From a virus, in the UHGV virus genome UHGV-1468954: DNA of 30,750 nt; one strand, written 5' to 3'. Below, piece by piece: positions 1,019 to 2,533 of this stretch. Below the pieces are notes generated by a model that was not told the DNA's origin, searched no databases, and saw nothing but the letters and a program-made list of their open reading frames with translations. The position numbers were made by a program, and so were the translations under genes. Position 1 is the first letter of the stretch. Each line of letters begins with the position of its first letter.

Positions 1019-1987
1019 TTAGATTTCTGGTTTCATTCTTCCGAAAACCTTTTCTATTCCTTTTTCGTATTCTTCTCTTGTCTCACTCATCGCTGCGACA
1101 CCAAGAAGCTTACCGATATGCTGACGCAAAGCCTTGACACCAATTTCAGAAAGGAACAGATGCAACTTATCAGATTGTTTTCCGTTCTCGTCTCGGCTGG
1201 CTCTAATTTGTTCAAGGATTTTACCTTTACTCTTTGCTAGCGGGGTGTATATCTGCATGTTGGTTAGCTGCCCAAAACGAATAGGCCGTCCTTTCTCTGG
1301 CCTATTCAGGCCGTACAGTCGATACCACTCCTCGTATAGCTCATCTGGAAATTCCTTTTCATATTGACGAGCCTCTTCACGAACAAACGCTTTGAACTCG
1401 TCAATGACAGCCTGAACTTCTGGACGATAACCAGCAAGCGCATACGCAACCCCCTTAATTCCCGCCTTAGCGGAGGCATTAATAAGTCTCTGTGCTGCGG
1501 CGGCTGCCTTTAACCGTGATTGTGGTAGATCGTCATTATCTTTGGCTTCTATTAGTGCCCTACCAATATCAACAATTGCTGTAATGTCATAACCTAACGC
1601 TTGATGAACGGTTTTAGACTTCGAAGTAAGTTGAAATTTATAGGGATTTTCCATTTTTCGCTGCAATTCTAGATCTCGGTATTTGCTCATATACTGAGCG
1701 CCAAGCAGTTGATCTAAATCCCTGGCATGTTCACCAATCCCTAGCAACTGAGATAATCCAGTTTTCGTAACAACGACAGTTTTCGACTCGTCATCCAGTA
1801 CATAACATTCAGCATCAATGCCAAAATCATCTAAAAAGTTACCACGATGAGTTGCCCTGAGAATCTTACTTTTCCATCTTGCAGCAGCTGCTTTCTTTGC
1901 TATTTCAGAACGCTGCTCTTTAGTCAGCGACTTTGCGCGAGCGATCCCGCCCTTAGCTTTCCCTTCGCCACTTTTCTTTTCAGTCAT
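1019..1987 (-). CDS. Hypothetical protein (322 aa) with basic N-terminal motif, at the sieA-equivalent position
   Basis: Track ORF 1019..2062; I prefer the internal ATG at 1987 (AGGTG about 8 nt upstream), giving MTEKKSGEGKAKGGIARAKSLTKEQRSEIAKKAAAARW.... No TM segment. Family not recognised with certainty. Confidence 0.6.
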   Translation of the reverse strand: MTEKKSGEGKAKGGIARAKSLTKEQRSEIAKKAAAARWKSKILRATHRGNFLDDFGIDAECYVLDDESKTVVVTKTGLSQLLGIGEHARDLDQLLGAQYMSKYRDLELQRKMENPYKFQLTSKSKTVHQALGYDITAIVDIGRALIEAKDNDDLPQSRLKAAAAAQRLINASAKAGIKGVAYALAGYRPEVQAVIDEFKAFVREEARQYEKEFPDELYEEWYRLYGLNRPEKGRPIRFGQLTNMQIYTPLAKSKGKILEQIRASRDENGKQSDKLHLFLSEIGVKALRQHIGKLLGVAAMSETREEYEKGIEKVFGRMKPEI

Positions 1988-1988
1988 A

Positions 1989-2078
1989 ATGCAAGCACCT
2001 TTGTTGTGATGTATGCTTGCATTATATGCACTGTACACACATACAAGCAAGCATAAAACCAAAACAAAATGCTTGCAT
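1989..2078. promoter_or_regulatory. Array of four ATGC-WW-GCAT palindromic sites in the divergent orf322/orf129 intergenic region
   Basis: Sites at about 1989 (ATGCAAGCA), 2013 (ATGCTTGCAT), 2045 (AAGCAAGCAT) and 2069 (ATGCTTGCAT); centre spacings 24, 32, 24 bp. Confidence 0.45.
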
Positions 2079-2143
2079 TACAACCGCGCTACTCCAACTA
2101 CACATTATCATCTGGTATCCTGCACAAAACTAAGGAGGTTGGT

Positions 2144-2533
2144 GTGAAGCAATTTCTTGCTGCTATGTTCTTATTCATATCTTTTGGGGCTACAGCAGAG
2201 TGCTGGGTCGTTGGAGATATGCGCGGAATAAGCTATTCAGAACGAAATAATTTCCATCCGGAAGAAGATGGTTTTAGTGGAACATTCATCATTAAGACAA
2301 GCGGTGAAGATGCTAGCATCACATATTCTGGGACAGATGCGGGCGGCATGGCTTACAAAGTATTGTCTAAAAACTCCATCATAGGAATCGGCGCGAATGG
2401 CGAAACTCAACGCGTTATCGACTCATGGGTAATACATCCTACTGGAACAGTTTTAATGTCAAAAACCATTTCCGGTTATGGAAATATGGATTCAACCAAA
2501 GCTTTTGTTGGAAAAGTAAAAAGAAAATGTTAG
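2144..2533 (+). CDS. Small secreted/periplasmic protein (129 aa) with Sec-type signal peptide
   Basis: Track ORF 2069..2533; the likely start is GTG 2144, preceded by AAGGAGG with a 5-nt spacer. N-terminus MKQFLAAMFLFISFGATA-ECW looks like a signal peptide with an AXA cleavage site. Opposite strand to the late operon (moron-like). Confidence 0.55.
   Translation: MKQFLAAMFLFISFGATAECWVVGDMRGISYSERNNFHPEEDGFSGTFIIKTSGEDASITYSGTDAGGMAYKVLSKNSIIGIGANGETQRVIDSWVIHPTGTVLMSKTISGYGNMDSTKAFVGKVKRKC

Follow-up and report, generated by a model that had tools for sequence, protein, structure and literature searches.

The DNA analyzed here, referred to as the window, is the 30,750-nucleotide virus genome UHGV-1468954, which contains the late region of a P22-like (Lederbergvirus) prophage in reverse reading direction. 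At the locus under study, two divergent genes are separated by an intergenic region of 156 bp (1988-2143). On the minus strand, which is the late strand, orf322 (1019-1987; ATG at 1987, stop at 1019) encodes a 322-aa protein with a P63C domain; on the plus strand, orf129 (2144-2533; GTG start at 2144) encodes a predicted secreted small beta-barrel protein of 129 aa. The intergenic region holds four short palindromic units. A preliminary description of the sequence had reported this divergent pair and, between the genes, four palindromes in alternating orientation with 24/32/24 spacing, and we recovered both. The same four-unit array recurs upstream of P63C genes far beyond this prophage.

Four palindromic units and their conservation with P63C genes

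A pattern scan for ATGCWWGCAT located the units at 1989 (one mismatch), 2013 (exact), 2045 (one mismatch), and 2069 (exact), with starts and centers 24, 32, and 24 bp apart and a central dinucleotide that alternates AA/TT/AA/TT. Numbered toward orf322, unit 1 (U1, 2069-2078) reads ATGCTTGCAT on the plus strand and ATGCAAGCAT on the orf322 strand, as does unit 3 (U3, 2013-2022); unit 2 (U2, 2045-2054) reads AAGCAAGCAT and ATGCTTGCTT, and unit 4 (U4, 1989-1998) reads ATGCAAGCAC and GTGCTTGCAT on the respective strands. The order on the gene strand is therefore U1 ATGCAAGCAT, 24 bp, U2 ATGCTTGCTT, 32 bp, U3 ATGCAAGCAT, 24 bp, U4 GTGCTTGCAT, and the ATG, and the pairs U1/U2 and U3/U4 each form an inverted repeat. 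Across the whole window the motif occurs at chance level (8 matches with at most one mismatch versus 7.44 expected). Its clustering is nonrandom: four or more units in one 90-bp stretch have a probability of about 1e-8, or about 3e-6 across all positions, by our Poisson estimate from the window-wide match density.

Translation of the DNA upstream of orf322 homologues gave the recurrent strings "NASI," "CKH," and "DACM," the translations of the palindrome in its three frames. Upstream of 66 P63C-family genes, the core TGCWWGCA was found 162 times in 21.5 kb, compared with 29 times in 499.5 kb of flanking DNA, a 130-fold enrichment. The full four-unit array (TGCAAGCA, TGCTTGCA, TGCAAGCA, and TGCTTGCA on the gene strand) was present in 45 of the 66 bacterial genome loci, which span Alpha-, Beta-, and Gammaproteobacteria, Acidobacteriota, Syntrophaceae, Abditibacteriaceae, Heliobacteriaceae, and others; of 80 viral contigs, 75 carried it. 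Among 94 distinct arrays, spacing was 22 to 25 bp between U1 and U2 in 91, 31 to 32 bp between U2 and U3 in 86, and 23 to 24 bp between U3 and U4 in 84. It is unusual for a cis-regulatory array to stay nearly identical in sequence, orientation, and spacing over a range that extends from Acidobacteriota to prophages of E. coli.

Within the units, core positions are mostly 90 to 100% invariant, the variable exceptions being U2 base 8, U4 base 6, and U1 base 5, and positions flanking the units pair at chance level. U4 carries a G6-to-A change in 17 of the 94 arrays, and the partner base in U3 is never altered. Two loci carry matching changes in U1 and U3 (both TGCTAGCA in L064 and both TGCAGGCA in L008), with U2 and U4 unaltered at the partner positions. 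Enterobacterial copies have a more degenerate U1. Dozens of diverged enterobacterial prophage copies, with protein identity down to 58%, keep the four units, the -10 element described below, and the spacing. Five viral contigs (L133, L134, L135, L137, and L138) have two units only, with U1, loop, and U2 joined directly to the start codon, as if U2 x U4 recombination had deleted the promoter and U3. In a divergent acidobacterial P63C clade (L020, L024, L026, L031, L033, L038, L040, L045, and L062), two CTTGC-N4-GCAAG-like palindromes flank a TTGACT -35 element about 60 to 150 nt upstream of the start, and further variants (L042, L051, L009, and L068) read TGCTTGC-N3-GCAAGCA or TGCTTAGCA.

The protein encoded downstream of the array belongs to a large family. 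Pfam PF10546 (P63C) matches aa 199 to 286 of orf322 (1130-1393, minus strand; E value of 6.8e-14, 52.7 bits against a cutoff of 26.1), and the match was found in all 22 aligned homologues. RefSeq names the protein "P63C domain-containing protein," and it also matches phrog_2384, listed as function unknown. Homologues number 1,682, with 45 to 50% identity kept across distant taxa. In the AlphaFold2 (AF2) model the P63C region is helical, with low to moderate confidence. The N terminus (MTEKKSGEGKAKGGIARAKSLTKEQRSEIAKKAAAARW) contains a Lys/Ala/Arg-rich motif of about 30 aa, suggested earlier to be DNA-binding-like and here called KGG..ARW (aa 9 to 38, GKAKGGIARAKSLTKEQRSEIAKKAAAARW; 1874-1963, minus strand), in which G13, G14, A16, R17, A18, R26, A30, R37, and W38 are invariant among the 22 homologues. 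This motif is widespread, occurring in 315 representative clusters, and no Pfam or NCBIfam family describes it; fusions of proteins bearing it to other domains gave no functional clue, with one XRE helix-turn-helix among them. Neither orf322 nor orf129 matched a defense family in PADLOC-DB 2.0 at an E value of 0.1 or below, and a defense-system identity for the locus was rejected on that basis. Literature searches on P63C and on the motif string returned nothing relevant and no functional study of P63C.

Predicted promoter, leader, and terminator of orf322

A sigma-70-type promoter appears to be embedded in the array, with its -35 element inside U2 and its -10 element ending on the first base of U3. 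In the window, the -35 element is TTGCTT (2045-2050) and the -10 hexamer is TATAAT (2021-2026, minus strand), the last T of which is the first base of the U3 core. This layout recurs among the 94 arrays: the -35 element in U2 reads TTGC(A/T)T in 73; the -10 element, TAnnAT, is made up of the five bases before U3 and the first T of U3, with T1, A2, and T6 present in 82 and TATAAT the commonest form; and the spacer is 17 to 18 nt long in 86. Because the -35 element lies in U2 and the -10 element abuts U3, the tight U2-U3 spacing corresponds to the promoter spacer. A consensus promoter scan missed this promoter because its -35 element matches the consensus at three of six positions only. Judged from the position of the -10 element, transcription is predicted to start inside or just after U3, so that U3 would cover the start site. 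Translation signals are associated with the last unit. In the window, U4 lies between a Shine-Dalgarno sequence, AAGG (1998-2001), and the ATG at 1987; the start codon lies -1 to +3 nt from the end of U4 in 93 of the 94 arrays, and a Shine-Dalgarno-like tetramer is found within the last 8 nt before U4, in the U3-U4 interval, in 55.

The promoter spacer also contains a LexA-box-like element, TTGT-ATGTGTGT-ACAG (2031-2046, minus strand). Of 61 enterobacterial or viral arrays, 35 have the pattern TTGT-N8-ACAG, compared with none of 38 others; among its copies N8 is variable, and the TGT and ACAGTG flanks are kept. It does not conform to the canonical LexA box, CTGT-N8-ACAG, the first C of which is T in the window and is retained in only 1 of the 61 arrays.

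Downstream, a hairpin of the form AAACCCACC-TGAC-GGTGGGTTT (994-1016, both strands) directly follows the orf322 stop codon and is followed by a T run on the minus strand; we read it as a bidirectional terminator common to the convergent genes orf322 and mnt. Weak terminator-type Rfam matches were found on both strands, and the hairpin was absent from the output of a consensus terminator scan. The loop of the hairpin contains the mnt stop codon (1001-1003).

Transposon relatives and interchangeable neighbors

In 24 of the 66 bacterial loci, the gene divergent from the P63C gene encodes an IS1-family-type DDE transposase of about 290 aa, with a DDE_Tnp_IS1 match (28.9 bits against a cutoff of 24.1) and an N-terminal helix-turn-helix. 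In about 21 loci, a small open reading frame (ORF) of 65 to 85 aa stands convergent to the P63C gene, directly adjoining the stop codon of the latter, and encodes a protein that ends in the KGG..ARW motif (..NPAAVALGRLGGLKGGKARAKKLTAEERSEIAKKAAAARW; for example, L010:4974-5258, L011:4972-5241, and L017:4971-5261). This small-protein family comprises at least 7,990 clusters at 90% identity; most listed members are unnamed, a few carry the NCBI label "histone H1," and no Pfam or NCBIfam model covers them. No inverted ends were found around the transposase and P63C genes taken alone; they appeared once the small third gene was included. Thirteen loci then proved to hold complete elements of 2.3 to 3.9 kb with inverted ends GGTAGTG(G/T)(G/C)TCAGTTTGA, and perfect 8-bp target duplications were present in 12 of the 12 elements with both flanks at hand. 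The complete elements (among L009-L067; for example, L011:2973-5275 and L013:3036-5560) consist of the transposase gene, the four-unit array, the P63C gene, and the small KGG..ARW gene, some with extra cargo, and their hosts are Acidobacteriota, Proteobacteria, Syntrophaceae, and other groups outside the enterobacteria. The window itself is not an IS1-family element: transposase, GGTAGTG..TCAGTTTGA ends, and small KGG..ARW gene are all absent. Literature searches on IS1 elements with passenger genes returned nothing relevant.

The transposon copies also suggest a second promoter in the array. On the opposite strand, the TTGCAT of U1 forms the -35 element of a predicted transposase promoter, and a (T/C)ATAAT-type -10 element (at least 5 of 6 matches) lies 16 to 18 nt from it in 11 of 16 loci, with the transposase ATG mostly about 6 to 8 nt further on. 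Loci without the transposase, the window included, have no comparable leftward -10 element (best hexamer in the window, ACTACA). The opposite orientation of U1 and U2 is thus accounted for by back-to-back -35 elements in the transposon. In L011, L013, L017, L036, L050, L067, and L069, the transposase ATG lies 6 to 8 nt after (T/C)ATAAT and 30 to 60 nt beyond U1 on the opposite strand, which would leave the predicted transposase mRNA with almost no leader. In these loci, a fifth, degenerate unit (CGCTCAAGCA / CGGTCATGCA) stands before the transposase -10 element, and a string similar to CGCTCAAGCA encodes "RSSK" at the start of the small gene.

In P22-like phages the array is found with other divergent genes. 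orf322 is present at the same site in 611R6, elppa4, and G749 and absent from P22, Emek, and ST-35. In 611R6, orf322 and the intergenic region are conserved at 98% identity next to another divergent gene (a 134-aa protein is among the orf322 partners), and in E. coli elppa4 sieA takes the place of orf129, in divergent orientation to the same array and orf322. The window, elppa4, and 611R6 are near identical through the intergenic region, including the GTG (AAGGAGGTTGGTGTG), and diverge totally from the next codon onward. Conversely, Emek and ST-35, which carry orf129, and P22, which carries sieA, have the same leader in front of these genes, with no orf322 and no palindrome of any kind. By this comparison the array is orf322's alone and orf129 is a separate, swappable cargo. 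The proposal that the two genes form a functional pair is not supported by these relatives. That of a multioperator switch survives in part, in that a genuine regulatory array overlaps a predicted promoter but travels with orf322 only and is not shared by both genes. The suggestion of a moron is likewise supported for orf322, given its own promoter-like signals, its intrinsic terminator hairpin, and its presence or absence among relatives. We read the cassette of array, gene, and terminator as a moron derived from the regulatory core of an IS1-family transposon.

The leader upstream of orf129 marks the slot that sieA occupies in P22. It reads GGTATCCTGCACAAAACTAAGGAGGTTGGTGTG (2114-2146, plus strand), ends in the orf129 GTG, and is identical upstream of P22 sieA and in ST-35 (P22 sieA, ST-35, and Emek form, GGTATCCTG..CAAAACTAAGGAGGTTGGTGTG), with one base different in elppa4 and 611R6. 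Besides the window copy, instances were noted in L155, L001, L156, L002, and L003. The stretch GGTATCCTGnnCAAAACTAAGGAGGTTGGTGTG is common to P22 sieA and at least seven other unrelated ORFs, orf129 included, and homology stops right after the GTG; across 22 viral contigs, at least eight unrelated ORFs follow this GTG, and 7 of 8 have hydrophobic N termini. A consensus scan and reading of 2079-2143 gave no convincing sigma-70 promoter for orf129; the only candidates are TATCAT (2106-2111), which has no -35 element, and TGGTATCCT as an extended -10 element. orf129 would be expressed from the leader that it shares with P22 sieA, as interchangeable envelope-protein cargo.

No Pfam, NCBIfam, or PADLOC family matches orf129 itself, whose homologues form a separate 22-cluster family. 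Read by eye, its N terminus combines an n-region containing K with the hydrophobic stretch FLAAMFLFISFGATA and the cleavage motif A-T-A/EC; in the AF2 model, the first 18 residues are disordered and a beta-barrel begins at residue 19. The proposed Sec signal peptide agrees with both features as far as they go, and the protein is predicted to be a secreted, soluble (periplasmic), all-beta barrel with a terminal disulfide. It shares with P22 SieA its position, orientation, leader, and GTG start; family scans found no sequence similarity between them. Moreover, SieA is an inner-membrane protein (PMC10883804), in contrast to the soluble barrel predicted here. On the basis of family scans and the barrel model, with no direct comparison run, orf129 was not recognized as a member of the SieA family (types A to C, multipass inner-membrane proteins).

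The flanking genes agree with the reported placement at the sieA position. In P22-like prophages sieA is located between genes 16 and 9 (PMC10883804), and the P22 record agrees; in the window the flanks are gene 16 (gp16; 2558-4399, minus strand), mnt (752-1003, plus strand; Pfam Arc, 2.8e-22; Repressor_Mnt, 2.2e-18), which is the immI remnant and is convergent with orf322, and the N terminus of the tailspike (1-617, minus strand), and in elppa4 sieA stands exactly at the orf129 site. The window corresponds to contig IMGVR_UViG_3300045988_037354, and its positions 600-2700 are 100% identical to the E. coli G749 chromosome. A perfect 15-bp palindrome, AGACCAC-A-GTGGTCT (674-688), lies between the tailspike start and mnt and is probably the Mnt operator of the immI remnant. 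Both arc and ant are missing from the window.

Function of the array

With moderate confidence, we favor the reading that the array is a self-contained promoter-operator of the P63C gene and that the P63C protein regulates its own gene through it. Repeated specific sites lie over the -35 element, the -10/+1 region, and the translation start, as in an autoregulated cassette. Because the units are conserved by identity and not by pairing, we conclude that they are recognized as sequence, most simply as double-stranded operators. A host factor is an unlikely binder because the motif is constant across host phyla. The putative binder should be element encoded and is most probably the P63C protein itself, because, of the associated genes, only that for P63C accompanies every array: transposase and small gene are both missing from 23 type-I arrays, including all enterobacterial ones. 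In the proposed mechanism, the four units would act as double-stranded DNA operators for one element-encoded protein. Occupancy of U2 and U3 would exclude RNA polymerase, U1 and U4 would add cooperativity, and orf322 expression would thereby be low and self-limited in the lysogen, independent of late transcription. In the ancestral transposon, the array would also supply the divergent transposase promoter.

We count in favor of autoregulation that divergent P63C protein clades appear to bear different but related putative operators; linkage alone, however, co-inherits any cis element with its gene, so this correspondence lends weak support. Other points weigh against it. The promoter, the start site, and repression are all deduced from sequence. 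Rigid cooperative binding fits poorly with U1-U2 and U3-U4 spacings that differ among arrays by as much as 5 bp. A symmetric dimer on a near palindrome would not need the AA/TT alternation, which is explained for U1/U2 only, not for U3/U4. The AF2 model of orf322 is of only moderate confidence (predicted local distance difference test score, 71), with no confident structural relative, and a strongly conserved protein of 322 aa is large for a mere autorepressor.

The inverted units might instead act as RNA or single-stranded DNA structure rather than as protein sites. Hairpins of U3 with U4, or nested hairpins of U1 with U4 and U2 with U3, would bury the ribosome binding site and ATG in read-through transcripts from gene 16, whereas the gene's own transcript, starting inside U3, would lack the 5' arm and stay translatable. 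The alternating orientation, the placement of U4 on the start codon, and the -10 element abutting U3 are what such fold-back needs, the module originates in a transposon, and the full array as RNA folds strongly (-52.3 kcal/mol, z = -6.7; equaled by none of 200 shuffles), in contrast to the leader that begins at the predicted start of the gene's own transcript, which shows no structure (-7.6 kcal/mol, z = 0.0). We nevertheless judge this explanation unlikely: the arms are conserved by identity across phyla with no compensatory change, C-A mismatches occur in 17 of the 94 arrays, pairing does not extend into the flanks, and neither the near-palindromic nature of each arm nor the retention of U1 and U2 in phage copies is explained. 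Loop complementarity did not exceed that of composition-matched shuffles (mean z = -0.16, P = 0.43); an apparent loop-loop covariation (P = 0.0012 in a cross-locus permutation) was lost under composition-preserving shuffles and was rejected. No Rfam family scored above threshold, the only matches being sub-threshold and miRNA precursor-like (about 30 bits versus gathering scores of at least 100). Fold-back on late read-through transcripts may occur as a by-product alongside protein binding. Another protein might instead occupy the units, with P63C as regulated cargo: a host protein (such as LexA at TTGT-N8-ACAG, which would make expression SOS responsive), the IS1-type transposase, or the small KGG..ARW protein. 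The restriction of the LexA-box-like element to enterobacterial or viral arrays, the helix-turn-helix of the transposase, and the basic motif shared by the small protein would fit this proposal, which we regard as quite improbable, since phyla with different host regulators share an invariant 8- to 10-bp unit, the 23 arrays without transposase and small gene include the window, and the LexA-like box, which has the canonical C in a single array, is separate from the four units.

That orf322 and orf129 form one system, for instance for superinfection exclusion, with the array as a bidirectional switch, seems to us a poor prospect, even though the genes are divergent and adjacent, U1 lies about 40 to 55 bp upstream of plausible orf129 starts, the array of the transposon copies does drive a divergent gene from its predicted promoter, and the pair occurs together in 7 of the 22 leader-bearing viral contigs. 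The array and orf322 are also paired with sieA, with the 134-aa protein, and with at least five other ORFs; orf129 or sieA follows the identical leader with no array in Emek, ST-35, and P22; and the leftward -10 element that would depend on U1 is missing from the window. Finally, the array might be left over from transposition or recombination of the ancestral IS1-type element, as a relic site with no present function in the prophage. Its derivation from a transposon module, the U2-U4 fusion in five viral contigs, and the greater degeneracy of U1 in enterobacteria would suit a relic; we hold this to be very improbable, as units, -10 element, and spacing are maintained in dozens of diverged prophage copies and the transposon ends differ from the array.

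The array resembles, in parts, several known systems. InsA of IS1 binds the terminal inverted repeats and is a transposon-encoded repressor of the transposase promoter. As with InsA, an element-encoded gene stands beside a DDE_Tnp_IS1-type transposase and repeated sites overlap promoters; in contrast, the present sites are internal and unrelated to the ends, the 320-aa P63C protein is unrelated to InsA, and the window has no transposase. The operators of P22 immI (Mnt with Omnt, Arc with Oarc, in the neighboring region) are likewise short symmetric sites over divergent or compact promoters inside the late operon, and in the P22 annotation this region is expressed independently of that operon. 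They differ in being bound by ribbon-helix-helix proteins rather than P63C, in their sequences, and in having one operator per promoter rather than four dispersed units; moreover, the immI operators are experimentally established, while the P63C array is known here from sequence alone. A lambdoid moron is an extra gene with its own promoter and terminator. orf322 is similarly inserted between conserved genes, variably present, and furnished with promoter-like signals and a terminator hairpin; unlike morons in general, its regulatory region is conserved across phyla and its origin is traceable to a transposon module. IS10 and IS50 are protected from outside transcription by fold-back inhibition of read-through transcripts, and here too the predicted start lies inside the 5' arm of an inverted repeat with the 3' arm on the start codon; the differences are that the arm sequence is invariant instead of covarying and that two further units lie upstream of the promoter.

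More tentatively, and with the odds in our view against it, the P63C protein, the array, and the small KGG..ARW protein may constitute the regulatory core of a widespread, undescribed three-gene IS1-family transposon, in which P63C would set the transposase level via back-to-back promoters and from which P22-like prophages captured the array and the P63C gene, perhaps for a new role.

These findings bear on several families. A phage moron is now tied to a defined family of transposons, the ends and target duplications of which are clear. In P22-like prophages, a conserved slot made up of the leader and its GTG swaps unrelated envelope-protein genes, sieA among them, and this slot provides a ready list of candidate exclusion or conversion genes. 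P63C (PF10546) is a function-unknown domain in thousands of phage, prophage, and transposon genes, and the array offers this family an immediately testable DNA target and promoter. If the three-gene transposon core is real, the prophage P63C protein may silence incoming relatives of the element or exclude other mobile DNA, and the KGG..ARW motif would represent a new portable module for binding nucleic acids or partners.

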